From IMG/VR virus record IMGVR_UViG_3300020414_000008, positions 64,001-128,000 of that record: a stretch of DNA of 64,000 nucleotides; one strand, written 5' to 3'. Origin of the DNA: a virus. Its lineage: Duplodnaviria; Caudoviricetes. Below are positions 1 to 60,773 of the stretch, one piece after another. The position numbers and the translations under genes were made by a program. Below the pieces are notes generated by a model, which ran no database searches, was not told the DNA's origin, and saw only the letters and a list, made by a program, of their open reading frames with translations. Positions within the stretch are counted from its first letter, which is position 1. Every line of letters begins with the position of its first letter.

Positions 1-2234
1 ATATAGAGGTAGAAATGCTTAGTGGTCTTCCTGACATTGATAAAGCAGATAACGAAATTACTGCGATTGCAGGACATGATAGTGTTACAAATGATTATTT
101 TGTTTACGTTGTTAATAAAGGTGAGAAGATTAATAAAACAATCAAAGGTGCACAGGTAGAATCATTTGACTCAGAAGATGAACTACTTACAGCATTCTTA
201 AACAAGTGGCAAGAAATAAATCCATCAATTGTAACAGGATGGAATATTGATTATTTTGATGTCACATACTTGTACAACAGATTAAAGAATAGATTTGGTG
301 AAAGATTAGCAAACAAACTATCACCGATTGGTAAAGTTCATTGGAACAAATATCGTAAAAGATACATTATCGCAGGTGTATCAGCATTAGATTATCTTGC
401 GTTATACAAATGTTACACATACACTGAACTTCCAAACTATAGATTAGACACGGTAGCAACAACTGAATTGGGTAGAGGAAAGATTGAGTATGAAGGAAAC
501 CTTGACCAACTATTCAGAGATGATATAGAGAAGTTTATTGAGTATAACTTAGTTGATGTAGAGTTGGTTGTTGATATGGATAAGAAACTTCAGTTTATTG
601 ATTTAGCAAGAGCAATATGTCATACAGGTCATGTGTTCTATGAAGATTACTTATTTTCATCAAAATGGTTAGAGGGTGCAATGTTGACATTCCTTAGAAG
701 GAGTGGTAGAGTCGCACCAAATAAAGCAAGACGAGTTCCAAGAAACGAAGATGGTTCAGATGGTGAATCTAAGTTTACAGGAGCGTATGTAAAAGAACCA
801 AAGCCAGGATTGTATAAATGGGTTTATGATTTAGATTTGACTTCACTATATCCATCAATCATTATGAGTATCAATATTTCACCTGAGACAAAGATTGGTA
901 AGTTGAAAGATTATTCTGCTGAAGACCATATGAAAGGTAGATTAGAAACTTATACTATTATGGACGTTGATGGAAATGAGTTTCCTACTTTACCAAAAGA
1001 TAAGTTCAAAGCATTTATAGATAAAAACAAATATTCAGTCGCATCAAACGGAGTCCTTTATAGAACAGATAAAGTTGGTATTATTCCTGAAATATTAAAT
1101 GTTTGGTTTAACAAAAGAGTTGAATACAAAGATTTGATGAAAAAGTATGGTAAAGAAGGTAATGACGAACAATACAAGTTTTACGGTAAACGACAGTTAG
1201 TACAAAAGATTATGTTAAACTCTTTGTATGGAGTTTTAGGATTACCATCATTCAGATTCTATGATATTGACAATGCAGAAGCAACTACGATTACAGGTCA
1301 AACTGTAATTAAAACAACTGAGTTGATTGCAAATCAATACTACTCAAAAGTGATAGGAAAAGAGGCAGACTATAACGTGTATACTGATACTGATTCTGTA
1401 TTCTATCAAGCAGCACCGTTGGTAAAAGCACGTAATCCTGAACTCAATGAAGAGTCGGATGAAGAAATGATTCCTGCGATTCTATCCGCAGCAAAAGAGG
1501 TAGAACAACACATTAATGGAATGTACGATGTTATGGCAAAAAAGTTATTTAACATTGATACACATAGATTTGATATCAAACAAGAAACAATCGCAAAGGG
1601 TGGTTTTTGGGTATCAAAGAAACGATACGCTCAATGGATTATCAACGACAATACTGTTGATTGTGATAAATTGGACGTAAAAGGATTGGATGTAAAACGT
1701 AGTTCGTTTCCAACTTACTTTAAAGAAGTTATGAAAACAGTTCTTTTAGATATTCTAAAATCAACTGATAAAACAGAGATAGACCAAAAAATATTAGATT
1801 ACAAAGATGGTATGGTCGATAGGAACTTTATAGACATTGCAAAAAATACGTCAGTAAAAGAACTGTCAAAATATATGACAAAGAGTCAGGTGTTGGGTGA
1901 GTTCAAAAAAGGAACTCCTGCTCACGTTAAATCTGCATTGACATATAATCAATTACTTGCGTTCTATAAAGTACCTTACAAATATGAACCAATGAGAGAC
2001 GGTGACAAGGTTAAGTGGGTTTATTTAAAAAACAATCCACTTGGATTAGATTCAACCGCGTTAAAAGGTCATAACGACCCACCACAGATTCTAAAGTTTG
2101 TTGAACAATATATTGACTATGATAAAATATGGGAAAAGGAGTTAGAAAACAAACTTGGAGATTTCTATGAAGCGATGGATTGGGAAAAACCTAATTCTAA
2201 TTTACAGAAAGCATCACAATTTTTTGGATTTTAA
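1..2234 (+). CDS. polB: Family B DNA polymerase (T4 gp43-like), 5'-truncated by the window edge
   Basis: Motifs GWNIDYFD (ExoII), YNLVD (ExoIII), DLDLTSLYPS, KIMLNSLYG, YTDTDS. Frame is open upstream of ATG 15 (reads IEVE, consistent with ExoI DIE), so the true start lies before the window. Confidence 0.97.
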   Translation, partial: IEVEMLSGLPDIDKADNEITAIAGHDSVTNDYFVYVVNKGEKINKTIKGAQVESFDSEDELLTAFLNKWQEINPSIVTGWNIDYFDVTYLYNRLKNRFGERLANKLSPIGKVHWNKYRKRYIIAGVSALDYLALYKCYTYTELPNYRLDTVATTELGRGKIEYEGNLDQLFRDDIEKFIEYNLVDVELVVDMDKKLQFIDLARAICHTGHVFYEDYLFSSKWLEGAMLTFLRRSGRVAPNKARRVPRNEDGSDGESKFTGAYVKEPKPGLYKWVYDLDLTSLYPSIIMSINISPETKIGKLKDYSAEDHMKGRLETYTIMDVDGNEFPTLPKDKFKAFIDKNKYSVASNGVLYRTDKVGIIPEILNVWFNKRVEYKDLMKKYGKEGNDEQYKFYGKRQLVQKIMLNSLYGVLGLPSFRFYDIDNAEATTITGQTVIKTTELIANQYYSKVIGKEADYNVYTDTDSVFYQAAPLVKARNPELNEESDEEMIPAILSAAKEVEQHINGMYDVMAKKLFNIDTHRFDIKQETIAKGGFWVSKKRYAQWIINDNTVDCDKLDVKGLDVKRSSFPTYFKEVMKTVLLDILKSTDKTEIDQKILDYKDGMVDRNFIDIAKNTSVKELSKYMTKSQVLGEFKKGTPAHVKSALTYNQLLAFYKVPYKYEPMRDGDKVKWVYLKNNPLGLDSTALKGHNDPPQILKFVEQYIDYDKIWEKELENKLGDFYEAMDWEKPNSNLQKASQFFGF

Positions 2235-2258
2235 ATATTAATTAATTAGGAATATATT

Positions 2259-2882
2259 ATGTTAGATGTATCAACACATAAAAATGTAGAAAATGTTATC
2301 AGATATTTTCTTTTATACTTACCACCAAGAGGAGCAGAATCCATATTAGACGTGGGTGGTGGGTGTACAGCACCTTACAAAGGTGTTCTACAAACAAGAT
2401 GTGAGGAATACAGAAATCTTGATATAAGAAGTGGCCCAGGCGTTGATTATGTTCAAGATATTGTAGAGGGAACTGACTTTGAAGACAAACAGTGGGATTG
2501 GACATGGTGTTCAGAAACACTTGAACACATTCCACAAAAGTATATGAAGACATTTGTTGATGAAGTTTGTCGTATAAGTAAGAACGTAGTTTGGACGTTC
2601 CCGTTACCACACTCTGAGCCGTTTCCTTTAGACCCTGGCCATAGTGAAGTAATTGTAGATATGGAATCATATTCAAAAGACTTTCATGTATTTGATAAAA
2701 CTACCAAATCAGGTAGGGGTATTTGGATTTTCGCAAGAAAAGACAGAAAGGTAGAAGTAACCAATAAAGGTATCATTCAAGAAGGATACTCCGCTGATAA
2801 CTTATCGTTTGATGTGGTTAACAATAAAAAACGTCTAAAAGCAAATCCTGTCACTGTAAATAAATTTTTTAGTTTTGATTAG
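2259..2882 (+). CDS. Class I SAM-dependent methyltransferase
   Basis: ILDVGGG motif I, acidic LDI, and WTWCSETLEHI post-II motif typical of Methyltransf_11/23. Confidence 0.8.
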   Translation: MLDVSTHKNVENVIRYFLLYLPPRGAESILDVGGGCTAPYKGVLQTRCEEYRNLDIRSGPGVDYVQDIVEGTDFEDKQWDWTWCSETLEHIPQKYMKTFVDEVCRISKNVVWTFPLPHSEPFPLDPGHSEVIVDMESYSKDFHVFDKTTKSGRGIWIFARKDRKVEVTNKGIIQEGYSADNLSFDVVNNKKRLKANPVTVNKFFSFD

Positions 2883-2910
2883 GAATTGTCAATTAAATTT
2901 TGTATATTAG
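2879..2910 (+). promoter_or_regulatory. Bacteroidota-like promoter TTAG-N20-TATATTAG upstream of the clamp gene
   Basis: Same spacing as the recurrent TTTG-N20-TATMTTWR element. Confidence 0.6.
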
Positions 2911-2930
2911 TAACAAACTTAAAATAAATT

Positions 2931-3626
2931 ATGAAGAAAAACTCGTTTGAAGGTTTCATTTCCCGATATAATCTCGGTGGTGAAGTCGAATCGGTTAAGA
3001 TTAACTCAACCGATGAAGGTATGTCTGTAAGTTTTATTTCAGACGACAAGACACTCTTAGGGAGTGTTCAAAGTGAAAACAAAGAATTCCCAAATGGAGA
3101 GTTCGGTATTTACACAACATCACAACTTAAAGGGTTGTTAGGTGTTTTAGATTCTTCTATTGATATTACTGAAGGTGAAGCATCTTTAGTATTCTCAGAC
3201 AAGAAGACATCAGTTAATTATATGTTAGCAGATTTATCTGTTATTCCTGTAGTTCCTGATTTAAAACAACTACCTGACTTTAATGGTGAAATTACATTAG
3301 ATGATGAATTTATTTCAACATTCGTAAAGTCAAAAGGAGCGTTAAGTGAATCAGATACATTTACTTTCTCTTGTAAGGGTAACAAAGGTTCTGTTGTGTT
3401 AGGTTATCAAAAAATTAATTCTAATAGAATTTCTATGAATGTAAACTGTAAATGTGATGGTGACATCGAACCAATCTCATTCTCAGCAAAATACTTAAAA
3501 GAAATTCTTAATGCAAACAAAGGTGCAAAATCATCTTCTCTAAAAGTTTCAAGTCAAGGACTTGCATTCGCAACATTTGAAAAAGATGGTTTCACTTCTA
3601 ACTACTACTTAGTAGAAATAAAGTAA
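2931..3626 (+). CDS. Sliding clamp (T4 gp45-like)
   Basis: 231 aa acidic protein with EFGIY..QL motif and terminal NYYLV strand; lies between polymerase and clamp loader. Confidence 0.8.
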   Translation: MKKNSFEGFISRYNLGGEVESVKINSTDEGMSVSFISDDKTLLGSVQSENKEFPNGEFGIYTTSQLKGLLGVLDSSIDITEGEASLVFSDKKTSVNYMLADLSVIPVVPDLKQLPDFNGEITLDDEFISTFVKSKGALSESDTFTFSCKGNKGSVVLGYQKINSNRISMNVNCKCDGDIEPISFSAKYLKEILNANKGAKSSSLKVSSQGLAFATFEKDGFTSNYYLVEIK

Positions 3627-3635
3627 GGAGCAAAT

Positions 3636-5126
3636 ATGACTAAAGATTACAACCATCCACTGTACGGTAGACGAGTTCTACACATCATGTCACCTGTTAG
3701 GTGGAGTGGTCCTAAATTTCAACATCACGGTGATTCTAACTATAAAGTTATGGTTAAGACTATCAAGTTTTTACCAATGTGTCACCATACAATATTGGTC
3801 CCTACCAATAACACGATTCCTGATTTAGGTCCAAACGTAACATTAGTACCATTTGATTATACTCAATCTGTTTTATCAAATAGAGCATACTTTAACGGTA
3901 AACTCTTAAACAAACTTACAGATTGGAGAGGTCAAGATTTTGACTTTATATTTAATCACCAACCTGAACTTTTATATAATGTTGTAAATTCAATCATGTC
4001 TTCAAGATATGGTCTTACAGTAGAATGTTTCAATTTCTTCCATTGGGTTGACTGTACAAAGAGTAGAGTTACAGATGGATACCCTGAAGGATTCTATAGA
4101 CAACTTGAAGCAATTAATTGGTCTTACAAATCATATTTCCACTGTCCTGTATCAAAAGATTATATGAAATCTAATTGGGACAAAAAGGACTATATAGTTC
4201 AAGGTATCAATGACGAAGTCATGGATGAAAAGATTAACTACTTTCCATTAGGAGTAGGACAGTTCCCTGATTCGGAACCATTCCCTAATCCTGCACGAGG
4301 TAAAAAGATATTGTTATTCAATCATAGATGGAACAATTCAACAGGTATCAATAAACTTATTGAATATACTGAAGACCTTGATAGGGATGAGTGGTTAGTT
4401 TGGGTTACTGATGAAAATGCAAAAAAACCTCAAGCAGGTAAACCTGCACCAAAATGGATGTATGTTAAGAATTTACCAAGTGGTGGAGCATATCGTAATT
4501 TGATTGAACAGTCTCATGCCACTTTGTGTTTTGTTGACAACTACATGACTTGGAACTTATCAGTACAAGACGCAGTTAGGTTGAAGAAACCAAGTTTAGC
4601 GTTCAAACACCCAACATATGAATATGTCTTGGGTAAAGATTATCCATTATACTTCTCAGATAAAGAGGAGTTCTTAGATGTAATAAATAAAATTCCTGAA
4701 GGTAAGAAATTTGATTGGGAATTACCACCACATGATGAAGACTTTAAAAATAATCTTGTTGGTGATTTAATACATTGTTTAGAAAACAGTAAGAAGAAAC
4801 ATACATCCAAAACCAAATACGGTGTGGAGTGGTTATATCATATCTTACAGGGTAATGGATATAAAAAGAACATCTTGTATAATAGTCACCCGTCATTACA
4901 TAAAAGTAATGCGTGGGAAGGTATTAGACAGTGGTGTTTAGAAAGAGGTGTAAAAGATACACCGAATGAAGTTTATACTAAACTTTGGATTCCTGAAGAA
5001 AACATCGATGATATTAAGAAAATTATTGATGAAGCAGGAAACGTAGATTACAAAGGTGACCCATTAGATGAGTCTAAGAGAGACCCTAAATGGTCACAAA
5101 ACTTTACATCAAATAAATTCTTTTAA
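3636..5126 (+). CDS. GT-B fold glycosyltransferase-like protein, possibly acting on nucleic acid
   Basis: FDFIFNHQPE, ILLFNHRW (similar to the HRW motif of DUF3524/GTDC1-type GTs), W.LSVQDA..LKKP donor-binding-like segment. Confidence 0.55.
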   Translation: MTKDYNHPLYGRRVLHIMSPVRWSGPKFQHHGDSNYKVMVKTIKFLPMCHHTILVPTNNTIPDLGPNVTLVPFDYTQSVLSNRAYFNGKLLNKLTDWRGQDFDFIFNHQPELLYNVVNSIMSSRYGLTVECFNFFHWVDCTKSRVTDGYPEGFYRQLEAINWSYKSYFHCPVSKDYMKSNWDKKDYIVQGINDEVMDEKINYFPLGVGQFPDSEPFPNPARGKKILLFNHRWNNSTGINKLIEYTEDLDRDEWLVWVTDENAKKPQAGKPAPKWMYVKNLPSGGAYRNLIEQSHATLCFVDNYMTWNLSVQDAVRLKKPSLAFKHPTYEYVLGKDYPLYFSDKEEFLDVINKIPEGKKFDWELPPHDEDFKNNLVGDLIHCLENSKKKHTSKTKYGVEWLYHILQGNGYKKNILYNSHPSLHKSNAWEGIRQWCLERGVKDTPNEVYTKLWIPEENIDDIKKIIDEAGNVDYKGDPLDESKRDPKWSQNFTSNKFF

Positions 5127-5127
5127 T

Positions 5128-6048
5128 ATGAGTAATTCACTATGGGTTGAAAAATACAGACCCGATACATTAGAGGGATATGTTGGTAATGAACATATCT
5201 TAGAAAAAGTAAAAATATACATTGAGAATGAGGATGTACCACACTTGTTACTTTATGGAGTAGCAGGTACAGGTAAGACTACCCTCGCAAAGATAATCAC
5301 TAATCAGATTGATTGTGATGTTATGTACATAAACGCCTCTGATGAAAACTCTGTTGACGCAGTTCGTGATAAGATTCGTGGATTCGCATCATCAATGGGT
5401 TTCAGAAAGTGGAAGGTTATCATATTAGATGAAGCAGATTATTTGACACCAAACGCACAAGCAGCACTTAGAAACTTAATGGAAACTTTTTCAAAGTCTA
5501 CAAGATTTATTTTAACTTGTAACTATGTAGAAAAAGTTATTGACCCGATTCAATCTCGTTGTCAGACATTCGCAATAACACCACCTTCAAAGAAGGAAGT
5601 AGCGAAAAGATTGTTTGATATATTAAACGAGGAAGAGGTTAAGTTTCAAAAAGAAGACCTTGCAGTATTAGTGAATGGTGGGTATCCTGACATTCGTAGA
5701 GTTCTAAATGCAGCACAGAGACAAGTTGTCAAAGGTGAATTGAAAATAGATACAACATCTACAGTTCAAGCAAACTATGTTGACAATGTAATTGAAGTGA
5801 TGAAATCAGGTGGTGAGATGAAAAAACAATTCAATCAAATCAGACAGATTATTGCTGATTCAAAAGTGAAAGATTTTCAACCACTATACAGAGCACTATA
5901 TGATGAAGTAGATGAATACGCATCGGGTAAAGTTGGACAGACTATTTTAAACATCGCAGATGGTCAGTACAAAGATTCAATGGTTGTTGATAAAGAAATC
6001 AACATTATGGCGATGATTTTAAATATTTTAGTAACAATAGGAAAGTAG
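5128..6048 (+). CDS. Clamp loader AAA+ subunit (RFC small / gp44-like)
   Basis: LWVEKYRP, Walker A GVAGTGKT, DEAD, SRC motif; probable start ATG 5128. Confidence 0.96.
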   Translation: MSNSLWVEKYRPDTLEGYVGNEHILEKVKIYIENEDVPHLLLYGVAGTGKTTLAKIITNQIDCDVMYINASDENSVDAVRDKIRGFASSMGFRKWKVIILDEADYLTPNAQAALRNLMETFSKSTRFILTCNYVEKVIDPIQSRCQTFAITPPSKKEVAKRLFDILNEEEVKFQKEDLAVLVNGGYPDIRRVLNAAQRQVVKGELKIDTTSTVQANYVDNVIEVMKSGGEMKKQFNQIRQIIADSKVKDFQPLYRALYDEVDEYASGKVGQTILNIADGQYKDSMVVDKEINIMAMILNILVTIGK

Positions 6049-6050
6049 TT

Positions 6051-6329
6051 ATGGCAAAAAAAGGAAAAGTTGTAGACTTAGGGGGACAGCAGAATAAACA
6101 ACAGGTAGGTCTAAAATTAGACCCAAGAAAGTTACCTACTGTAGATTGTCCCGAATGTGGTGGTATCTTCTTTGACGAAGTAACAATGTATAAAGAAGTA
6201 CCAGCAGTACAATCACCAAACGGTGTAGCATCGATGTTACCAATACCCGTTGTATTATGTAACAACTGTGGTACAGTTCATCCAAAATTTACACCAAAAG
6301 AACTGATTAATGGTGAAAAAGAAGACTAA
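6051..6329 (+). CDS. Small zinc-ribbon protein
   Basis: CPECG...CNNCG. Confidence 0.7.
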   Translation: MAKKGKVVDLGGQQNKQQVGLKLDPRKLPTVDCPECGGIFFDEVTMYKEVPAVQSPNGVASMLPIPVVLCNNCGTVHPKFTPKELINGEKED

Positions 6330-6747
6330 AACAATATTTGAACATATTTCGGGAATCAAAGAGAAAAAGGTTCCTTGGAATACTCTATCCGATATGGATA
6401 AGAAAACATTCTCACCATTTATAGTAAATAGATGGTTGTCAATGAATCTTAATCTTATTGAGTTGGTAAACGAGTTACAAAAACATACCATAGGTCAACT
6501 CAAACCCCGAGATGTGTACAAATTATATTTTGACGTTCTTCCACAGAAAAAGACATGGGATAAGTACATAAAAGGTAAAAAAGAAAGTAAGTACAATGAA
6601 AATGTCTTAAAGTACTTGTCAAAATACTATGAAGTATCTCAGAGAGAAGTCATAGGATATCTTGACATACTAACAAAAGATGAAATTACCGAAATAATAA
6701 AAAAATACGGTATAGAAGATAAAGAAATAAAGAAATGGCTGAAGTAA
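6310..6747 (+). CDS. Clamp loader small subunit (gp62-like)
   Basis: FSPFIVNRWLSM...VNE motif, YYEVSQRE; adjacent to the gp44-like gene. Confidence 0.75.
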   Translation: MVKKKTKTIFEHISGIKEKKVPWNTLSDMDKKTFSPFIVNRWLSMNLNLIELVNELQKHTIGQLKPRDVYKLYFDVLPQKKTWDKYIKGKKESKYNENVLKYLSKYYEVSQREVIGYLDILTKDEITEIIKKYGIEDKEIKKWLK

Positions 6748-7145
6748 TAAAAGAAAGAAAAAACAAAGTTAAGTGGAATGGTGAAAAACAAGTGAAGAGA
6801 AATGTAGAGGAATCCGCAATAGAATATTGTGAAAGACTATATCCAAACACGACAACTGAGTTTAAAAAGATTCAAGAAGAAATGTATGAAACATTCTGTA
6901 AAAAACAAAGAAATTACGGACCCGATAACATTTCAGTTGGTTCTAACTTAGAAACTGATGATGAAATAAAGATATCACTAACAGGTTTATGGTTCAGAAT
7001 GAATGATAAAATCCAAAGACTAAAACAATTAGTAGTTTTAGGTCAACCTGATGAAGTTGGTGAAAACATCCAAGATACATACGAAGATATGAGTGTTTAT
7101 GGAGTTATAGCACAGATAGTCCAAAGAAAGAAGTGGGCTAAGTAA
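6735..7145 (+). CDS. DUF1599 / nucleotide-modification-associated domain 1-like protein
   Basis: KKQRNYG...RMNDKIQRL...DTYEDMSVYGVI pattern. Confidence 0.7.
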   Translation: MAEVIKERKNKVKWNGEKQVKRNVEESAIEYCERLYPNTTTEFKKIQEEMYETFCKKQRNYGPDNISVGSNLETDDEIKISLTGLWFRMNDKIQRLKQLVVLGQPDEVGENIQDTYEDMSVYGVIAQIVQRKKWAK

Positions 7146-7147
7146 AA

Positions 7148-7204
7148 TTTAACAATTATTTAACATAAAAGATTTGGTAATTCCAAGTCTTTTTCTTATC
7201 TTTA
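7148..7204 (+). promoter_or_regulatory. Promoter with tandem TTTAACA repeats (TTTAACA-N4-TTTAACA-N7-TTTG-N20-TATCTTTA)
   Basis: One of six copies with identical geometry. Confidence 0.75.
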
Positions 7205-8683: not shown

Positions 8684-9044
8684 AAATAGAGGAGAAATAA
8701 AAGAGTTAATCTTTAACTTAAAGAAAAAGTTTGGTGACGACCTAATCATAGTTACACGAGGTAAAAAAAATGGTATTGAAAAGTGGGTTAGAAAGTACTC
8801 GTTAGAAATGAGTGTAAAGTATATCGAATATAATCCTGCACATACATCTGTAACGTTGTATAGTGGAATGGAAGATGACTATTACGATAAACCATATCAC
8901 CCAACACAACCACTTCACCAATATGATTGTATCGTACATAACTCAGATAAGATAGTTTATTTTGGGGAGATACAAAGGAATGAATTTAATCATTTCAACA
9001 GATTGTTAAATAGATGGAAAAAGAAAGCAAGTTTCGTACAATGA
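8649..9044 (+). CDS. SLOG/DUF2493-like protein
   Basis: MRVALIG...IVTRG..NGIE...IVHNSDKIVYF. Confidence 0.55.
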   Translation: MRVALIGHETYENRGEIKELIFNLKKKFGDDLIIVTRGKKNGIEKWVRKYSLEMSVKYIEYNPAHTSVTLYSGMEDDYYDKPYHPTQPLHQYDCIVHNSDKIVYFGEIQRNEFNHFNRLLNRWKKKASFVQ

Positions 9045-9385
9045 ATGAAATAGAATATAGACCTTGGGGTAGATACGAGGTATTGTTAGATGACCCCACT
9101 ACAAAAGTAAAAAGAATTACAGTAGAACCTCACAGAAAGTTGTCGTACCAATATCACCACAAAAGACAGGAATGTTGGACCGTGATAAAGGGTGAGTTGA
9201 CAATTGTTTTAGATGACGAAAAAGTATTCAGAAAGTATGGTGAGACCATCAGAATACCATTAGGAGCAAAACACAGAGCATGGAATGAGACAGATGAACC
9301 CGTTGAGTTTATAGAAGTTCAAACAGGTACATATTTTGGTGAAGATGATATTGTTAGAATTTCTGATGAATATAATAGGATTTAA
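9041..9385 (+). CDS. Cupin, mannose-6-phosphate isomerase type II C-terminal domain
   Basis: RPWG, LSYQYHHKRQECW, IEVQTGTYFGEDDIVR. Confidence 0.9.
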   Translation: MNEIEYRPWGRYEVLLDDPTTKVKRITVEPHRKLSYQYHHKRQECWTVIKGELTIVLDDEKVFRKYGETIRIPLGAKHRAWNETDEPVEFIEVQTGTYFGEDDIVRISDEYNRI

Positions 9386-9434
9386 TTAATTTTTTTTGTA
9401 TATTTATAGTTAAATAAAAAAGAAGAAGTTACAC

Positions 9435-10859
9435 ATGAGTATAGAACTACCAAAACTAAAGAAGGTATCTAAGGACAAAGTAAAGAAACCAAAGATACTT
9501 TTACTTTCCGATGATTTACGATTACATAGTGGAATCGCAACACAATCAAAAGAAATTGTATTGTCAACAGTACACAAATATGATTGGGTACAGTTGGGTG
9601 CAGCATTAAAACACCCTGAATCAGGTAAAACACTTATCTTAGACGCCGATGTTCAAAAAGAAACAGGAGTCAAAGACGCAAGTGTAAAAATATATTGTAA
9701 TACAGGTTACGGTAATCCCGATATACTAAGACAATTAATAAACATAGAAAAACCTGACGCAATCTTACACTTTACAGACCCAAGATTTTGGAGATGGTTG
9801 TATGAGATGGAAAATGAAATTAGACAGATTTGTCCAATCATGTATTACAACATTTGGGATTCACTTCCTGACCCACTATGGAACGCACCATTTTACGCAA
9901 GTTGTGACTTACTATTAGGTATATCAAAACAAACCTATGGTATCAATAAAAGAACACTTGAAAAAACAGGGATGTCAAAAGAAGATTGGAATCACAAGTA
10001 TATTCCTCACGGTGTAACTAAACTATTTAAACCATTATCGGATATGGACCCAAAATTAGTTGAGTTCAAACAGAAGTTTAAATTAGACAAATACGACTTT
10101 ATTGTAGGTTGGAATAACAGAAACATTCGTAGAAAAGTGCCAGGTGATGTAGTTGAAGCATTTAGTAGATTCGCAGAAATGAATCCTGATAAAAAAATGT
10201 TATTGTTTTTACATACCTCTCCGAGTGACCCGAATGGTACAGACATTCCTGAGGTTATCAAACATTGTGGTAAATTTGGTGAATACAAGTTTACACAATC
10301 AGGACCGAAGACACAAGCATTTCCAACAGACGTATTAAACTTATATTACAATTCATGTGATGTAGTTTTAAATGTCGCATCTAATGAAGGGTTTGGATTA
10401 GGTTCTTGTGAAGCAATGAGAGCAGGTACTCCAATCATCGTAAATGTCACAGGTGGACTACAAGACCAATGTGGATTCAGAAAAGATGGTAAACTACTTA
10501 CAGCAGAAGATTATGTTGAAATAGGTTCACTTCATCAGTGGAGAAAATGGAAAGGTAAATTAGAACATGGTGAGTGGGTTAAACCTGTATGGCCAACAAA
10601 TTTATCATTACAGGGGTCACCTGTTACTCCTTATATCTATGATGATAGATGTGATGCTATCGATATCGCGGAAAACCTTAATGAGTTTTTCAAAATGGGT
10701 AGAGAAGAATGTGAAAGAGTTGGTATGTTAGGTCATGAGTTTGTAGTAGGTGAAGGTGATATGGCATCAGAAACAATGGGTGAAAAGTTTATTGAAGCAA
10801 TTGATACTTGTTTTGAAAATTGGAAACCAAGAAAAAGATTTGACTTATGGAAAGTATAA
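9435..10859 (+). CDS. GT4 family glycosyltransferase
   Basis: NRNIRRK, NEGFGLGSCEA..AGTPII. Confidence 0.9.
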   Translation: MSIELPKLKKVSKDKVKKPKILLLSDDLRLHSGIATQSKEIVLSTVHKYDWVQLGAALKHPESGKTLILDADVQKETGVKDASVKIYCNTGYGNPDILRQLINIEKPDAILHFTDPRFWRWLYEMENEIRQICPIMYYNIWDSLPDPLWNAPFYASCDLLLGISKQTYGINKRTLEKTGMSKEDWNHKYIPHGVTKLFKPLSDMDPKLVEFKQKFKLDKYDFIVGWNNRNIRRKVPGDVVEAFSRFAEMNPDKKMLLFLHTSPSDPNGTDIPEVIKHCGKFGEYKFTQSGPKTQAFPTDVLNLYYNSCDVVLNVASNEGFGLGSCEAMRAGTPIIVNVTGGLQDQCGFRKDGKLLTAEDYVEIGSLHQWRKWKGKLEHGEWVKPVWPTNLSLQGSPVTPYIYDDRCDAIDIAENLNEFFKMGREECERVGMLGHEFVVGEGDMASETMGEKFIEAIDTCFENWKPRKRFDLWKV

Positions 10860-12139
10860 AAAAGTTATGTGTAGTTAGTTGTCCAATCGCCACAAGAAGT
10901 GGTTATGGGGCAAGAAGTAGAGATTTTGTAAGAGCACTTATTGAACAAAAAGGTGATGAGTGGGATATCAAAATCCTTTCTCAAAGATGGGGTGATTTGA
11001 GTATGAACGCATTGACTCCCGATGATAAAGATTTGACTTCAAGGATGATTAATAAGTTAGAACAGAAACCTGATGTATGGTTTCAGATAACTATTCCAAA
11101 TGAGTTTACTCCTGTTGGTCATTTTAATGTTGGTGTATCCGCAGTTATTGAAACATCAGACGCAACTGCAGAATTTATCGAGGGTTGTAATAGAATGGAC
11201 TTGACTATAGTATCATCAGAACATTCAAAGAAGACTCTATCAGCAGTATATGATAAACTAAACGAACAAACAAAAGAAAAAGTAGGTGAACTAAAAATAG
11301 AAAAACCTGTTGAAGTTTTGTTTGAAGGATATGACACGAAAATATATGACCATAAAAAACCAATATCAAAAACAATAGAAAAAACATTATCAGAGATTCC
11401 TGAACAATTTTGTTTCTTATTTGTAGGACATTGGTTACAGGGTGATTTAGGTGAGGACAGAAAAGGTATCGCAGCATTAGTACACTCATTTTTGACGACA
11501 TTTAAGACAAATAGTTTTAATAAAAAATCACAACCAGCATTGATACTAAAAACATCTGTTGGTAAATCATCTATAACAAGTGTTCACGATGTAAAAAAGA
11601 AAATTGAAAAAATCAAAGAAATGGATGGTATGAATGGAATACTTCCAAACATATACATTCTTGATGGTGATATGACAGATGAAGAAATGAATTCATTGTA
11701 TAATCATCCTAAAGTAAAATCTCATATATCATTTACTCATGGTGAGGGATTTGGTAGACCATTACTTGAAGCATGTGTTAGTGGTAAACCTATTATCGCA
11801 TCAGGGTGGAGTGGTCACTTAGACTTTTTACATCCTCAATACAACTTTTTACTTGGTGGTGAATTAGTAGAAATCCATCCATCAGCCAGAAATAAGTGGT
11901 TCCAAGAAGGGAGTAAATGGTTTAAAGTAAATTATTCTCAAGGTTCAGGTACTATGAAAGCGGTATTTGATAAGTATAAGAAAGCATTAGAACAGTCCCG
12001 AAAGAATAGACAGTATGTAAAGAGTAATTTTACAAAAGAACATATGTCAACTAAATTGGGTGAAATATTCGACCAATATAAAGTAGGTGAAGGACCACAA
12101 CAAGTTACTTTAAAATTACCTAAGTTGAAGAAGAAATAA
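10847..12139 (+). CDS. GT4 family glycosyltransferase
   Basis: SGYG, HGEGFGRPLLEA..GKPIIASGWSGHLDF. Confidence 0.9.
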   Translation: MESIKKLCVVSCPIATRSGYGARSRDFVRALIEQKGDEWDIKILSQRWGDLSMNALTPDDKDLTSRMINKLEQKPDVWFQITIPNEFTPVGHFNVGVSAVIETSDATAEFIEGCNRMDLTIVSSEHSKKTLSAVYDKLNEQTKEKVGELKIEKPVEVLFEGYDTKIYDHKKPISKTIEKTLSEIPEQFCFLFVGHWLQGDLGEDRKGIAALVHSFLTTFKTNSFNKKSQPALILKTSVGKSSITSVHDVKKKIEKIKEMDGMNGILPNIYILDGDMTDEEMNSLYNHPKVKSHISFTHGEGFGRPLLEACVSGKPIIASGWSGHLDFLHPQYNFLLGGELVEIHPSARNKWFQEGSKWFKVNYSQGSGTMKAVFDKYKKALEQSRKNRQYVKSNFTKEHMSTKLGEIFDQYKVGEGPQQVTLKLPKLKKK

Positions 12140-12654
12140 TGACAGACTTTACAAGTAGACATAGAAGTAATATGAAAGACCCGACTAAGATTAGTAAATC
12201 TAAGTTGGAAAGAGGAATGGTTGCAAAAATCAGATACAAAAAGGTAGATGGTAAACAACGAGATTACTTTGTGTTTGTTTTACAACCTGATTTTAAATTA
12301 AAATTCCATTGTTTAGATTTGAAACATTGTTCACCACAGAGTTTTATCAAATTAGCAGAAGATTTAGATGAGGTGTTTAGTACAACAAAGGGGATTAGAA
12401 AATTAGATTTAACTAAATTAAGAATCGAAGAAAACTCTAAACAGTTTTATACGGGAGTTATTAGAAGTAAAAAACTTCAAGTAGGTTACAGAACTTTAGT
12501 TGAAAAAAATGTAGGTTCAGTTTTGGTCTATAATTACGATTATGGTAACTATGACAAAGTTCCACCAGCAACAGTAAGAAGACAACAAGAACAAGTAAGA
12601 AAAGATGACACGGATTTGGAGACAACACAAGATACTCCACCCGTAGGACTATAA
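12139..12654 (+). CDS. Hypothetical basic protein
   Basis: 171-aa ORF coupled to its neighbours; only faint resemblance to gp2-like DNA end protectors. Confidence 0.5.
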   Translation: MTDFTSRHRSNMKDPTKISKSKLERGMVAKIRYKKVDGKQRDYFVFVLQPDFKLKFHCLDLKHCSPQSFIKLAEDLDEVFSTTKGIRKLDLTKLRIEENSKQFYTGVIRSKKLQVGYRTLVEKNVGSVLVYNYDYGNYDKVPPATVRRQQEQVRKDDTDLETTQDTPPVGL

Positions 12655-12663
12655 AATTAAATT

Positions 12664-13287
12664 ATGAAAATTAGTTACGCAATAACAGTATGTAATGAGT
12701 TTGTAGAATTACAATCACTTTTACCTCACATCTTAAAATACAAAAGAAGAGAAGATGAGGTTGTAATATTATTTGACGAATCAAAAGGTGATGAGGGGAT
12801 AGAGGAGTTTTTAAGAGCGAAATCTGTCAACAACGCATTCGCATGGCATAAAGATAAATTTGATGGTCACTTCGGTGATTGGAAAAACAAGTTGACTGAT
12901 TTATGTAACGGTGATTACATTTTTCAGATTGACGCAGACGAAATACCAAGTAAGGTATTATTACAGAGTATACCCGATATTCTAACAATGAACAACGTTG
13001 ATGTAGTTCTTGTTCCAAGAATAAATACGGTAGAAGGTTTGACCCAAGAACATATCCAAAAGTGGGGATGGAGAGTTGATGAAAAAGGTTGGATTAATTG
13101 GCCAGACCCTCAGTGGAGAATATATAGAAAATCAGATACCATTCGTTGGGTAAACAAGGTACACGAGAAAATCGAAGGATACGAGACTATCTCTAACTTA
13201 CCTTCTTTAGAAGAGTTCGCATTGTTACACCCAAAAGATATCAAAAGACAAGAAAAACAAAATGAGTATTACGATACCCTTGTGTAA
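12664..13287 (+). CDS. GT2 family glycosyltransferase
   Basis: ISYAITVCNE, FQIDADE, W..KVHE. Confidence 0.88.
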   Translation: MKISYAITVCNEFVELQSLLPHILKYKRREDEVVILFDESKGDEGIEEFLRAKSVNNAFAWHKDKFDGHFGDWKNKLTDLCNGDYIFQIDADEIPSKVLLQSIPDILTMNNVDVVLVPRINTVEGLTQEHIQKWGWRVDEKGWINWPDPQWRIYRKSDTIRWVNKVHEKIEGYETISNLPSLEEFALLHPKDIKRQEKQNEYYDTLV

Positions 13288-42009: not shown

Positions 42010-42041
42010 TTTGGATATTAATGCAAATTTTTGTATATTAG
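42010..42041 (+). promoter_or_regulatory. Promoter TTTG-N20-TATATTAG upstream of groES
   Basis: Recurrent geometry. Confidence 0.7.
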
Positions 42042-49511: not shown

Positions 49512-50260
49512 AACAACCCTGAACAACCTCTATAGGTAAGACAAAATAAATCTACCTTAATTCACCCGCCAAGATTCATCCAAGTCTATTTATCCTTATA
49601 TGGTACTAATCAAAGTAATCTTAATGTTCTGCGTATTCATTTTCCTCATGAATCGTTGGTTCAAGTATTTGGACCGTTAAAAAACCCTCAAAAAACCCCC
49701 TTTTATCCCACTTTTTACCACTTTATGGTAAACTCTCACCAAATAATTCCTTAATAAAAGAGAGAAATATTTAATTAGAGAAGCTAAGGCTTCCCTACTT
49801 ATCCAATGAAAAGGGGTCGCTAATACACTTTTACCACAATAAACACAAACACTTTCCTATAAAACACCCATGCAACGAGTTTAACAGTAATAAAAGGGTG
49901 CTCTTGTCCGTGTTTCTGCGTTTTCCAATTTTTTTGCTATAGCGAAACCTTTTGCGCATTGTTAATAACCTGTTGATAACTTTTTTTTAGGTCGTTTTGT
50001 CAGTCTGAGTACCCTTGTAACACGGGTGTAGAGGTGTTACAAACGTAACAACAGAGGGGCGCCGGGGGTTCTGTAGAGGTATTTGTAACACATACCCCGA
50101 AAATGAGTAGTCGCTGAGTAGTGACAGGGTGTCATGTTGATAACTTTGTTGATAAAAAAGTGTTTATTTCCTTGTTTTTTTCATTTATTTTTCGTATATT
50201 AGTGGGGGGCATTGACCTACTTTTCACCACGGATGCGCAATAACCCGACATATATGGGTA
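49512..50260. other. Long non-coding region with paired DnaA-box-like 9-mers and inverted repeats (origin or genome-end candidate)
   Basis: No credible ORF; TGTT(A/G)ATAA pairs at 49960/49971 and 50135/50147; TTGTAACAC/GTGTTACAA inverted repeat 50015-50042; TGACA-N3-TGTCA 50122-50134. Confidence 0.5.
50171..50202 (+). promoter_or_regulatory. Promoter CTTG-N20-TATATTAG
   Basis: Recurrent geometry; no ORF follows directly. Confidence 0.55.
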
Positions 50261-52152: not shown

Positions 52153-52371
52153 ATGAGACAATTTAGTATAGGACAAAAAGTAATGTTCGAAGATAAGTGG
52201 GGTAGACTTAATGATGGTATTATCTCAGAGTTAAACAAACCATTCCCAACTGTAAATGACGATGGTGATGTAGTTGATATGTATCTCACAGTAGTACAAT
52301 CGGATATGGGACTTGGTGGTGAACCATCAAATGTAGCAATTAGTAATGAACAAATATTAACAGTAGTATGA
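52153..52371 (+). CDS. Small SH3-like hypothetical protein
   Basis: FSIGQKVMF...G.I. Confidence 0.55.
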   Translation: MRQFSIGQKVMFEDKWGRLNDGIISELNKPFPTVNDDGDVVDMYLTVVQSDMGLGGEPSNVAISNEQILTVV

Positions 52372-52565
52372 TAAACTTAAGTATTAGTGACCCAATAGAT
52401 GGGAACAATAAGATAGGTGAACTTCGTAACCATATAGGTAAAGACTATTATGGGAACAACAAACTCCTATCTGTAAGTAAGGATGGTAACGTATGTATCG
52501 TTCTTCGTGATGGTAAGAAAGTTAGTGAACCAAGTTGGATAACTTGGAATCGATTCTTTTATTAA
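52368..52565 (+). CDS. Hypothetical protein
   Basis: Coupled ORF. Confidence 0.5.
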   Translation: MINLSISDPIDGNNKIGELRNHIGKDYYGNNKLLSVSKDGNVCIVLRDGKKVSEPSWITWNRFFY

Positions 52566-53230: not shown

Positions 53231-53364
53231 TAAAGGTAGTAATAGGAACATTAGTCGTTATATGGTTGTGGATTGTATATGAAATGCATATCGCACCCGA
53301 GGTTGATGAACACGGTAATAGAATACCCGATGACAAAAAGAGAAAAGGTAAAACTCGTAAATAG
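53227..53364 (+). CDS. 45-aa single-TM peptide, absent from the ORF track
   Basis: MIKVVIGTLVVIWLWIVYEM...; ATGA overlap. Confidence 0.5.
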   Translation: MIKVVIGTLVVIWLWIVYEMHIAPEVDEHGNRIPDDKKRKGKTRK

Positions 53365-53875
53365 GTTACGGAAAACAAAAAGGAACTTTAAAGAAAGTTC
53401 TGACTTCCAAGAATTCTTAATAGATTGTTATCTATTTCTTGGTCCATCTGCATACGGTAGTCGTATTGAGAAAAGGTGGATAAAAGAAATGGGTTACAAA
53501 AAAATGTCTACATATAATCGTGGAGATTATATGGATGGTGACGAGTATGTGGAGTTCAAAGCATCGTATGAATCATTCGATAGATATACATTCTTACACA
53601 TAAGACCACATGAAGATGTTGACAGGTATGACCTATTTACAGTAGATAAAAAATTTAAACACAACGTATATAGTATACCAAAAGAAAAAATAGGAGACTT
53701 CATTTACAACAAAAAATTATTGAGTGGTGTTTGTAATGGAACTTCTGAAGCAAACGAAAACAATCAAACGGTTGAATACAGGTTCACTATCAAGAAAAAC
53801 CAATTGGAATTGTTGGAACCCTATTTAACTACAGGAAAAAAAATGAAAAAAACATACGAAAAGTTTTGGAAATAA
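53330..53875 (+). CDS. PD-(D/E)XK restriction-endonuclease-like protein
   Basis: YG..IEK, RGD......VEFKAS, F.HIRP; start uncertain. Confidence 0.6.
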   Translation: MTKREKVKLVNRLRKTKRNFKESSDFQEFLIDCYLFLGPSAYGSRIEKRWIKEMGYKKMSTYNRGDYMDGDEYVEFKASYESFDRYTFLHIRPHEDVDRYDLFTVDKKFKHNVYSIPKEKIGDFIYNKKLLSGVCNGTSEANENNQTVEYRFTIKKNQLELLEPYLTTGKKMKKTYEKFWK

Positions 53876-54067
53876 CAAATAAATTTCGTATATTATGTCT
53901 AAACAATTAAATATGAAAGACGTGCTAATACACTTATTGACTGCTGTTAAACTTGATTTTAAACGTAGGTGTGAACAAAACACCGATGAAGAATCACGAG
54001 ATACATACGGTAAGTGGCACGGAATCATTGAAGATATGATTAACACAATAGAATCAGGTGGAGTAAA

Positions 54068-60741: not shown

Positions 60742-60773
60742 TTTGGAAAATTGAAATATTTTTTGTATATTAG
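60742..60773 (+). promoter_or_regulatory. Promoter TTTG-N20-TATATTAG
   Basis: Recurrent geometry. Confidence 0.7.

Follow-up and report, generated by a model that had tools for sequence, protein, structure and literature searches.

Aromatic C-terminal tails shared with the DNA polymerase probably hook two accessory enzymes of an uncultured marine T4-like phage to its sliding clamp

An uncultured marine T4-like phage encodes two accessory enzymes inside its DNA-replication operon, a glycosyltransferase (GT) and a small methyltransferase. Both have a short aromatic tail of the kind found on the phage's own DNA polymerase, and by analogy with T4 and RB69 these tails probably hook both enzymes to the sliding clamp on DNA that has just been copied. 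The operon lies at the start of the stretch of DNA that was analysed (the window, 64,000 nucleotides, positions 64,001 to 128,000 of IMG/VR record IMGVR_UViG_3300020414_000008) and comprises the following features, numbered from the first nucleotide of the window.

1..2234, + strand: family B DNA polymerase, gp43-like (DNA_pol_B 1.4e-41; phrog_262 3.8e-182)
2199..2231, + strand: C-terminal 11 residues of the polymerase, ..NLQKASQFFGF, the presumed clamp-binding peptide
2259..2882, + strand: class-I SAM methyltransferase, 207 aa (Methyltransf_11/25 weak, at or below the cut-off; AF2 pLDDT 87.7)
2859..2879, + strand: methyltransferase tail, ..NKFFSFD (residues 199-207, pLDDT <50)
2898..2909, + strand: promoter-like motif TTTTGTATATTA, 22 nt upstream of the clamp start codon
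2931..3626, + strand: gp45-type sliding clamp, 231 aa (phrog_223 processivity factor, E 9.2e-12, residues 29-227)
3636..5126, + strand: divergent GT-B (GT4-like) glycosyltransferase, 496 aa (AF2 pLDDT 91.9; fold comparison)
5046..5123, + strand: linker and tail of the GT, residues 471-496, ending ..SNKFF (pLDDT drops to 44 in the last block)
5128..6048, + strand: gp44 clamp-loader large subunit (phrog_168 3.2e-84; AAA and Gp44_lid domains)
6051..6329, + strand: small Zn-ribbon protein (two CxxC pairs; weak Zn_ribbon_TFIIB match, 4.8e-4)
6310..6747, + strand: gp62 clamp-loader small subunit (Phage_clamp_A 7.4e-7; phrog_225 2.4e-19)
6735..7145, + strand: DUF1599-like protein (PF07659 at 23.5 bits, just below the cut-off of 25; phrog_1485 3.8e-13)
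7167..7193, + strand: terminator-like hairpin at the end of the operon (11-pair stem, then a T-run)

This gene order, as set out in an earlier note made from the sequence, matches the ORF list, and translation of the window places all of the operon ORFs on the plus strand with ends as earlier described. The polymerase ORF (3/15-2234 in the window) is 838 aa in full (G000:63718-66234), starting 282 nt upstream of the window. The clamp gene lies between the polymerase and clamp-loader genes, and its product aligns collinearly with T4 gp45 at a weak score (hhalign, E 0.0044) and had no sequence match in the PDB. The promoter-like motif TTTTGTATATTA occurs five times within the window, against 0.16 copies expected, and is also found upstream of the clamp gene in relatives, where the position of the Zn-ribbon gene is kept too. 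The polymerase, clamp, gp44, Zn-ribbon, gp62 and DUF1599 genes form the backbone operon of a clade of uncultured marine T4-like phages whose nearest cultured relative is the Microcystis phage Mel-JY01, and variable slots in this operon gather accessory enzymes, here the GT4-like GT and the small SAM methyltransferase. ClpP genes lie within the clamp-loader operon of relatives.

Two possible associations within the operon were not borne out by comparison with relatives. The DUF1599 gene had been taken as a marker of a modification system; however, Mel-JY01 carries a 52 % identical DUF1599 gene after gp62 with neither GT nor methyltransferase, and the gene is found across lineages whatever their accessory genes, making it a core operon gene without a link to the GT. 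Nor are the GT and methyltransferase an obligate pair. The methyltransferase gene is an accessory one, inserted between those for the polymerase and the clamp; it is missing at this position in L001, L009, L021 and L026, and missing in relatives that are 97-98 % identical and in most lineages that have the GT.

The three similar tails were borne out by translation (polymerase ..SQFFGF, methyltransferase ..NKFFSFD and GT ..SNKFF), as was their location outside the recognisable folds, with pLDDT <50 at GT residues 492-496 and methyltransferase residues 199-207. That of the polymerase lies beyond the phrog_262 match, which stops at residue 728 of 739, and is of the same type as the ends of the T4 (..SLDFLFG) and Mel-JY01 (..LSKFFNFK) polymerases. 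When the whole 180.8-kb genome was searched for C-termini made up of a polar residue, [FW][FW] and 0-3 further residues, 6 of 241 plus-strand ORFs matched, three of them neighbours in the replication operon; given the background of the other 3/238, the probability of at least three matches among eight operon genes is about 1e-4. The tail codons vary (TTT or TTC, with TGG also used in relatives) and the genes differ in the DNA that follows them, and the tails are therefore not a repeated DNA element; the codon variation, TGG included, indicates that selection on them acts at the protein level. Homologues of gp55 and gp33, sought in this genome as an internal positive control, were not found. 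The small subunit of the ribonucleotide reductase (RNR) of this phage ends ..EDWDDIF and its gp32-like protein ..AFDDLFND.

The tail is also conserved in homologues, a point that the earlier note had proposed to check. An [FW][FW] pair lies within the last six residues of 78 of the 89 distinct C-termini in the GT family (88 %, a count over related and hence non-independent rows), compared to 13 (2.1 %) of the 607 other proteins encoded on the same contigs. Alignments of the GT family show that the pair is kept while the linker diverges, and it persists to 40 % protein identity. Relatives of the methyltransferase have a looser version in 22 of 32 cases, with variable linkers and ends such as ..KFFKF, ..EFFE, ..KAW[LTV]F., ..NFWETN and ..KSWW. 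It might be argued that the likeness is due to chance or is a by-product of A+T-rich gene ends, as KFF is cheaply encoded (AAA TTT TTT) in a genome of 33 % G+C. This is scarcely credible, and is already contradicted by the tail counts and the codon variation: the pair is found at 88 % in the GT family against the 2.1 % background, many tails use TGG (WW, WF, FW) or TTC, the downstream DNA differs, and the motif outlasts divergence to 40 % identity.

Moreover, the aromatic pair on the accessory enzymes covaries with the polymerase tail. The polymerase, GT and methyltransferase of the window's lineage end ..QFFGF, ..NKFF and ..KFFSFD; in the L015/L045 lineage, whose clamp diverges most (27-31 % identity), the corresponding ends are ..N[AS]WF on the polymerase, ..DSWF and ..[VE]SWF on two GT paralogues, and ..KAW[LTV]F on the methyltransferase. 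A further lineage has a GT ending ..NTWW and an unrelated 280-aa protein ending ..NEWW. The same tag was found on bona fide DNA-modifying enzymes of sister lineages, where all eight N6/N4 DNA methyltransferases with distinct tails (homologues of Pfam-confirmed N6_N4 enzymes; seven were scanned in Pfam and six match PF01555) and both Mom-family proteins carry such a tail, and most of their genes directly adjoin the polymerase gene. One motif profile is common to the polymerase, GT, methyltransferase and DNA-modifier sets. The GT gene itself is not always close to the clamp gene: several lineages have it outside the replication module, upstream of HD phosphohydrolase and baseplate genes.

The interpretation placed on the shared tails in the earlier note, namely that the enzymes ride the clamp, stands insofar as the tail is shared, conserved and behaves like the clamp-binding peptide of the polymerase. 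Direct prediction of the complex lent it weak support. Three runs with the clamp trimer and GT residues 386-496 scored 0.54, 0.57 and 0.05 (median 0.54), the best of three controls 0.00, at least 53 % of contacts are shared between the runs, and the partner pLDDT is at least 65. Of 80 solved complexes, 58 reach the mark used, as do 2 of 110 mismatched pairs; only seven of those 80 complexes, but both mismatches, score 0.60 or less, and the calibration is only rough here, as custom alignments and three copies of the clamp were used. The pass may also stem from likeness to known structures because a solved RB69 clamp-peptide complex exists.

Alternatively, the aromatic pair could direct its bearers to something else than the clamp, for instance to the single-strand-binding protein or to a ClpP-type protease or adaptor of the phage, or could be a signal for packaging or virion targeting, with the likeness to the polymerase tail being convergent. 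Acidic or aromatic C-termini serve other contacts in this phage (the RNR and gp32-like ends given above), and the ClpP genes in relatives' operons, the GT genes next to baseplate genes and the single run at 0.05 all point in this direction. We nevertheless consider it improbable, since the polymerase has the motif where T4 and RB69 polymerases have their clamp peptide, the WF lineage shows the motif and the polymerase tail changing jointly, and the tailed proteins are DNA enzymes whose genes adjoin those of the polymerase and clamp.

In T4, the tails of gp43, gp55 and gp33 are interchangeable clamp epitopes on divergent linkers, and the role of polymerase C-terminal tails in T4 and RB69 has been described (PMC2988020). 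T4 alpha-glucosyltransferase (alpha-GT) co-purifies with gp45 (PMC13216743), which confirms an interaction attributed to Sommer et al. 2004. The GT and methyltransferase each have a flexible C-terminal linker leading to a basic or polar stretch and then the aromatic pair, a motif also present on the polymerase of this phage. By analogy with gp43, gp55 and gp33, the aromatic tail would dock into a hydrophobic pocket on the gp45-type clamp, and the enzymes would travel on loaded clamps, acting on or near freshly replicated DNA as is thought for T4 alpha-GT. That the tailed enzymes both dock on the clamp and act on or near newly copied DNA is, on balance, the reading that we lean towards.

What the enzymes might modify was approached through their folds. 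The GT-B fold suggested earlier for the 496-aa protein was confirmed by a structure model, Foldseek and VIA: it has two Rossmann-like domains with a cleft between them, VIA Z scores of 20-22 to SPS, MshA, BshA and PimA over residues 10-385, and an extra helical C-terminal domain (residues ~386-470). SenB, the GT of phage HY126 and OtsA are the top Foldseek matches, a phage DNA arabinosyltransferase (9iqz) ranks ninth, and ESM Atlas neighbours fall in GT1/GT4 clusters. The GT's closest fold neighbours belong to GT4 and have small molecules, lipids or cell-wall precursors as substrates. T4 AGT and BGT were absent from the best 50 fold matches and the family has no PF11440 or PF09198 match in Pfam, though a distant relationship to them may exist. 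Assignment to GTDC1/DUF3524 (the queuosine mannosyltransferase type), also put forward earlier, was rejected given the GT4 neighbours; no DUF3524 (PF12038) match was found in 59 family members at E<=1 or in ten distant relatives. Invariant residues, among them H16, H50, H51, R83, E111, R231, W232, D259 and D312, suggest an active enzyme. The methyltransferase has Foldseek probability 1.0 to many class-I methyltransferases, its nearest neighbours being small-molecule methyltransferases and the RNA 2'-O-methyltransferase HEN1, and its glycine-rich SAM motif (..LDxGGG..) is invariant in the alignment; in Pfam it has no N6_N4_Mtase, N6_Mtase or DNA_methylase signature, only Methyltransf_11/25.

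DNA is a plausible substrate because T4 alpha-glucosyltransferase binds gp45. Searches of the genome, which is 94 % complete, found no Tet_JBP, ThyX, C5 or N6/N4 DNA methyltransferase, dCMP/dUMP hydroxymethylase or 5hoC synthase, and the sole ThyA homologue scores as a canonical thymidylate synthase (TIGR03284, 277 bits vs a 108-bit cut-off) that matches E. coli-type structures. Hence, there is no sign of a hydroxylated base, of the kinds known, that a DNA GT could use as acceptor. Restriction sites are strongly avoided (observed/expected: GATC 0/671, CTAG 17/365, CCGG 13/90), which argues against blanket protective hypermodification.

It could therefore be that the tails do bind the clamp and the substrates are not DNA bases, the GT modifying a replisome-associated protein or small molecule, or being a non-catalytic clamp partner, and the methyltransferase acting on a protein, RNA primers or a metabolite. 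The fold neighbours of both enzymes and the lack of an acceptor-generating enzyme fit such a view, as does the extensive protein-glycosylation machinery elsewhere in the genome (phrog_2170 GTs at 9435-12139, and a UDP-galactopyranose mutase with a GT2 upstream of the polymerase gene). However, the other recognisable tail-bearing enzymes in sister phages are all DNA modifiers (N6/N4, Mom), with one PLP-enzyme-like protein as the sole exception, and a DNA GT, T4 alpha-GT, binds gp45. Published phage DNA GTs likewise look like LPS or teichoic-acid enzymes (10.1101/2023.12.21.572611), and 9iqz is itself among the closer matches. We regard non-DNA substrates as unlikely, though less so than a partner other than the clamp.

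Among known systems, the gp43, gp55 and gp33 epitopes of T4 and RB69 resemble the tails described here in being short, hydrophobic or aromatic, at the extreme C-terminus, on a divergent flexible linker and on several unrelated proteins. They differ in that the T4 tails (..SLDFLFG and ..SLDFLYEAND) are of an acidic LDFLF type, whereas here a basic or polar stretch precedes [FW][FW] and up to three residues, and the tails are borne by a GT and a methyltransferase (by DNA methyltransferases and Mom proteins in relatives) rather than by transcription factors, with clamp binding predicted. T4 alpha-GT is likewise a GT-B enzyme of a T4-like phage, clamp-associated and thought to be a replication-coupled modifier. 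Though similar in these respects, it belongs to PF11440, depends on 5hmC and has the end ..EQFDIITK, which is unlike a polymerase tail, while the GT of this phage is GT4-like, has no Pfam or PHROG match and has no 5hmC pathway alongside.

Hypermodification clusters, as described in passages of PMC8256090, 10.1101/2023.12.21.572611 and PMC13326640, combine a C5-MT/5mYOX (TET-JBP) or a ThyA homologue with GTs that derive from LPS/teichoic-acid-type enzymes and are sometimes encoded near polymerase and clamp genes; those passages make no mention of clamp-binding tails. The HY126 arabinosyltransferase is among the top fold matches of the GT, but the present genome is without 5mYOX, C5-MT or a hydroxylating ThyA homologue. 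The GT4 retaining enzymes (SPS 6kih, MshA 3c4q, BshA 3mbo and PimA 2gej) have the same two-Rossmann GT-B fold, superposing on the phage GT with an rmsd of 3.1-4.3 Å over 320-347 residues at 8-12 % identity, and unlike them the phage GT has an extra helical domain of ~85 residues and the tail; few members of its family match the Pfam GT1/GT4 models (weakly, Glycos_transf_1 in six and Glyco_transf_4 in three of 59). In animals, DNMT1 is a DNA modifier that a short aromatic motif, the PIP box, brings to the replication clamp PCNA, though that case is eukaryotic, with an internal PIP box and with a clamp and an enzyme of other families.

The first 7145 nt of the window are occupied by a single tightly packed operon on the + strand of a viral IMG/VR genome (G000; 180,769 bp, 94% complete), of which the window covers positions 64001-128000. 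Its genes were assigned to families using Pfam and PHROGs.

1-7145, + strand: operon with genes in the order family B polymerase, 207-aa methyltransferase-like protein (2259-2882), 231-aa gp45-type clamp (2931-3626), 496-aa glycosyltransferase-like protein (GT; 3636-5126), gp44, small Zn-ribbon protein, gp62, DUF1599-like protein
7167-7193: terminator-like hairpin marking the operon end, with a PD-(D/E)XK exonuclease gene next

The clamp was identified from a match to phrog_223 (E 9e-12), its size and its gene position; its profile comparison with T4 gp45 was collinear and weak, and a PDB sequence search with the clamp profile returned no match. The earlier note had cited DUF1599 as described from phage nucleotide-modification loci, but because the Microcystis phage Mel-JY01, the nearest cultured relative, carries DUF1599 with neither the GT nor the methyltransferase, it is a core gene and no marker of modification. 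A motif, TTTYGTATATTA, which is probably a phage promoter, has five + strand copies in the window versus 0.16 expected.

2898-2909, + strand: TTTYGTATATTA
42029-42040, + strand: TTTYGTATATTA
50190-50201, + strand: TTTYGTATATTA
53884-53895, + strand: TTTYGTATATTA
60761-60772, + strand: TTTYGTATATTA

At least the copies at 2898, 42029 and 60761 lie approximately 20-35 nt 5' of a start codon, and the motif also precedes the clamp gene in relatives. Downstream of the operon, a cupin-type mannose-6-phosphate isomerase gene and two genes for tail-less phrog_2170 glycosyltransferases (window 9014-12139) form the beginning of a separate glycosylation island.

The polymerase, methyltransferase and GT end in a polar stretch followed by an aromatic pair (..SQFFGF, ..NKFFSFD and ..SNKFF, respectively), exactly as the earlier note had written them. 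Genome-wide, a polar residue followed by [FW][FW] and up to three residues ends 6 of the 241 + strand ORFs, and three of the six are neighbours in the replication operon. Among the full-length relatives of the GT, the last six residues include an [FW][FW] pair in 78 of 89 distinct C-termini versus 13 of 607 other proteins from the same contigs, a contrast that is descriptive and carries no probability as the sequences are related. The linker preceding the tail diverges freely in the GT family. The codons of the tail vary (including TGG TGG and TGG TTT) and the DNA downstream is unrelated, and hence the tail is neither a repeated DNA element nor a by-product of A+T-richness. Tails in the methyltransferase family are looser (..KFFKF, ..EFFE, ..KAWVFG, ..NFWETN and ..KSWW), and some distant members have none. 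Four small ORFs, for which no family assignment was found, also bear a tail.

Window 52368-52565: tail-bearing small ORF
Window 53279-53875: tail-bearing small ORF
G000:132647-132997: tail-bearing small ORF
G000:136625-136873: tail-bearing small ORF

When gp55, gp46, gp47, UvsW and UvsY of the cultured cyanophage Synechococcus phage S-ShM2 were used as queries, no match was found in the genome.

Tails were tabulated for approximately 90 related loci. The polymerase has a tail of the same motif type wherever its gene shares the contig, and that of Mel-JY01 ends ..LSKFFNFK. In the lineage of the window, ..FF is found on the polymerase, GT and methyltransferase, and in another (L015/L045) the polymerase and two GT paralogues end ..[AS]WF and the methyltransferase ..KAW[LTV]F., with a clamp that is the most divergent (27-31% identity versus 34-45% for other distant lineages). 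One WW lineage has a GT ending ..NTWW and, with no relation to it, a 280-aa protein ending ..NEWW; no polymerase gene was found on the five WW contigs searched. These concerted changes amount to a few clade-level events rather than to many independent ones. Relative to the window, the L022 locus (L022:9296-13667) has a GT with 97% and a clamp with 90% identity against only 63% for the polymerase, a sign of cassette exchange. In L022 a 251-aa ORF, which may be an intein or a homing endonuclease, apparently splits the gp44 gene, and elsewhere the clamp-loader operon contains inserted genes for a PfkB-family kinase and a ClpP protease (L015:10628-11413 and 12146-12718; L018:12322-12924).

The strongest comparative result for a clamp tag came from surveying other proteins that bear the tail. 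Variable genes cluster at a hot spot, the slot just 5' of the polymerase gene.

G000:60748-63477 (in the 3.3 kb before the window start): slot with genes for a GT2, a UDP-galactopyranose mutase (GLF, E 6.7e-74) and a 2OG-FeII_Oxy_3 oxygenase
L022:5099-6672: slot in a sister lineage
L037:4285-6667: slot in a sister lineage
L023:4628-6037: slot in a sister lineage

In sister lineages the slot holds two Mom genes, three N6_N4 methyltransferase genes or a second GT paralogue. The two Mom-family proteins in L002/L022 (PF25680, E 4.5e-57 and 8.9e-46) end ..KTFFDI and ..DSEFW, and the three N6_N4 DNA methyltransferases in L003/L037 (E about 1e-44) end ..KHEFF, ..KKFFEWK and ..KEFFDY. A tail of this type is present on every one of the eight distinct N6_N4-type methyltransferases found among the loci. 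Hence, the tag marks enzymes with a known DNA substrate. The 2OG-Fe(II) oxygenase, the mutase and the GT2 were left out of the system because they are tail-less and found only in the closest relatives. Only one tail-bearing protein of recognisable family falls outside the obvious DNA modifiers: a PLP-enzyme-like protein of 238 aa (PALP, E 6.6e-10; ..VLFWNVF) encoded after gp62 (L037:13200-13916, the same as L003:11166-11882). In S-ShM2, a dam DNA methyltransferase gene lies between gp44 and gp62 (L098:31010-31918); its product has no aromatic tail and the S-ShM2 polymerase ends ..LEFLFG.

The GT has 159 relatives, down to 40% identity, in a collection of 5.8 billion proteins, and an exhaustive profile search recovered 318 representative clusters (50% identity). 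Among 50,697 cultured-phage records no relative of either the GT or the methyltransferase was found. The predicted fold (pLDDT 91.9) is that of a GT-B enzyme, and with VIA-align residues 10-385 match GT4 enzymes (such as sucrose-phosphate synthase, MshA, BshA and PimA) over 320-347 residues with Z 20-22 and rmsd 3.1-4.3 A. The top Foldseek matches were SenB, OtsA and the glycosyltransferase (9iqz) of HY126, an E. coli phage reported to have DNA with arabinosylated 5-hydroxycytosine (PMC13326640). In the model, an additional helical domain spans residues 386-470, and the chain ends in a disordered stretch. The kinship with GTDC1/DUF3524 proposed previously found no support, as DUF3524 matched none of the members scanned, Glycos_transf_1/Glyco_transf_4 matched a few weakly, and the ESM Atlas neighbours are GT1/GT4 clusters. 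No meaningful match came from a PDB sequence search with the GT profile.

The GT gene is mobile. Its place is the clamp-gp44 gap in this genome and the L018 lineage; other lineages have it just 5' of the polymerase gene, and the WW and L024 lineages have it ahead of an HD phosphohydrolase gene, close to baseplate genes. Distant GT relatives in a different phage type, with RecT adjoining (L099:5830-7158 and L100:1418-2746), end ..DLFSQF, ..DLFSEL or ..EFSLF. Such endings are reminiscent of the motifs that bind the bacterial beta-clamp and may point to host-clamp tethering.

The 207-aa protein, with 38 relatives, is a class-I SAM methyltransferase (model pLDDT 87.7). In structure it is close to small-molecule methyltransferases and to the HEN1 RNA 2'-O-methyltransferase, and not to DNA methyltransferases. 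It is an accessory insertion, absent from relatives that are 97-98% identical, and in relatives that lack it the clamp promoter motif directly follows the polymerase gene. Most GT-bearing lineages have no methyltransferase, and the two enzymes are therefore not an obligate pair.

The proposal of clamp-tethered DNA modification stands in part: the shared tail is real and conserved, but a known acceptor pathway is absent. The single ThyA homologue scores as a canonical thymidylate synthase, and no ThyX, Tet_JBP, C5 or N6/N4 DNA methyltransferase was found in the 94%-complete genome. GATC is absent (671 expected), CTAG occurs 17 times (365 expected; 12 of 17 preceded by G) and CCGG 13 times (90 expected; all 13 preceded by G). 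Such avoidance would be unexpected in blanket-protected DNA and so counts against blanket protection. GATC loss is widespread in the clade; GT-bearing lineages range from none to near expectation, and Mel-JY01, which has no GT, also has no GATC. No link between GT presence and restriction-site patterns was seen across lineages, and the small methyltransferase does not track them either. As writer of the GpC-type shielding, the small methyltransferase found no support: one GCTAG-shielded lineage lacks a methyltransferase across 68.8 kb of contig and a 292-kb phage with a tail-less homologue has no shielding, a weak result given that the contigs are fragments.

A predicted complex of the clamp trimer with GT residues 386-496, made using our own alignments and three clamp copies, had a median score of 0.54 (runs 0.54, 0.57 and 0.05), and the best of three controls scored 0.00. 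Contact agreement between the runs was at least 53% and partner pLDDT at least 65. Of 80 solved complexes 58 reached the mark for such scores, as did 2 of 110 mismatched pairs, and scores of 0.60 or under include only 7 of those 80 and both mismatches; a pass could reflect likeness to the RB69 clamp-peptide complex, which has been solved. The prediction thus adds only a small, weak increment for clamp binding.

The comparative evidence places clamp-riding well above bare motif resemblance, and that the GT and methyltransferase would ride the sliding clamp is the best explanation of these sequences, one that we favour by a little. That they modify DNA is plausible by association, as DNA methyltransferases and Mom proteins bear this tag too. 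A fuller reading is that the tail is a modular clamp address, allowing this phage clade to plug any DNA-modifying enzyme onto the clamp, that the GT4-like family writes a novel DNA glycosylation not starting from 5hmC, 5hmU or 5hoC, and that the small Methyltransf_11-like enzyme represents a new class of clamp-tethered DNA methyltransferase. The acceptor might then be a base on which the non-TET 2OG-Fe(II) oxygenase, the product of a gene just 5' of that for the polymerase, has installed a hydroxyl group, and the donor might be UDP-galactofuranose supplied via the adjacent mutase. Taken whole, this is improbable.

If the tails do bind the clamp, a clade of abundant marine phages physically couples DNA modification to replication by means of a single portable peptide, shared by at least four families with no relation to one another (GT4-like GT, small SAM methyltransferase, N6/N4 methyltransferases and Mom). 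The tail would then be a simple sequence rule for spotting DNA-modifying enzymes in uncultured phages, by which a GT family with neither a Pfam model nor a cultured representative would count as a candidate for writing an unknown DNA modification. Our literature search found no paper on such tails in phage DNA methyltransferases, Mom proteins or GTs.

DNMT1-PCNA in animals is a parallel to clamp-tethered DNA modification. The T4 proteins gp43, gp55 and gp33 have C-termini that closely resemble one another, can be interchanged, bind gp45 and sit on divergent linkers (PMC2988020); the tails read from the sequence record are ..SLDFLFG and ..SLDFLYEAND. The T4 alpha-glucosyltransferase binds gp45 (Sommer et al. 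2004; pull-down confirmation is reported in PMC13216743) and is, therefore, a precedent for a clamp-associated DNA GT, a single case that would become general if the tails described here bind the clamp. New here are this family of GT4-like enzymes, the Methyltransf_11-like methyltransferase, Mom proteins as putative clients and the lack of a known precursor pathway. Though the T4 enzyme binds gp45, as the GT is proposed to do, it has no polymerase-like tail.
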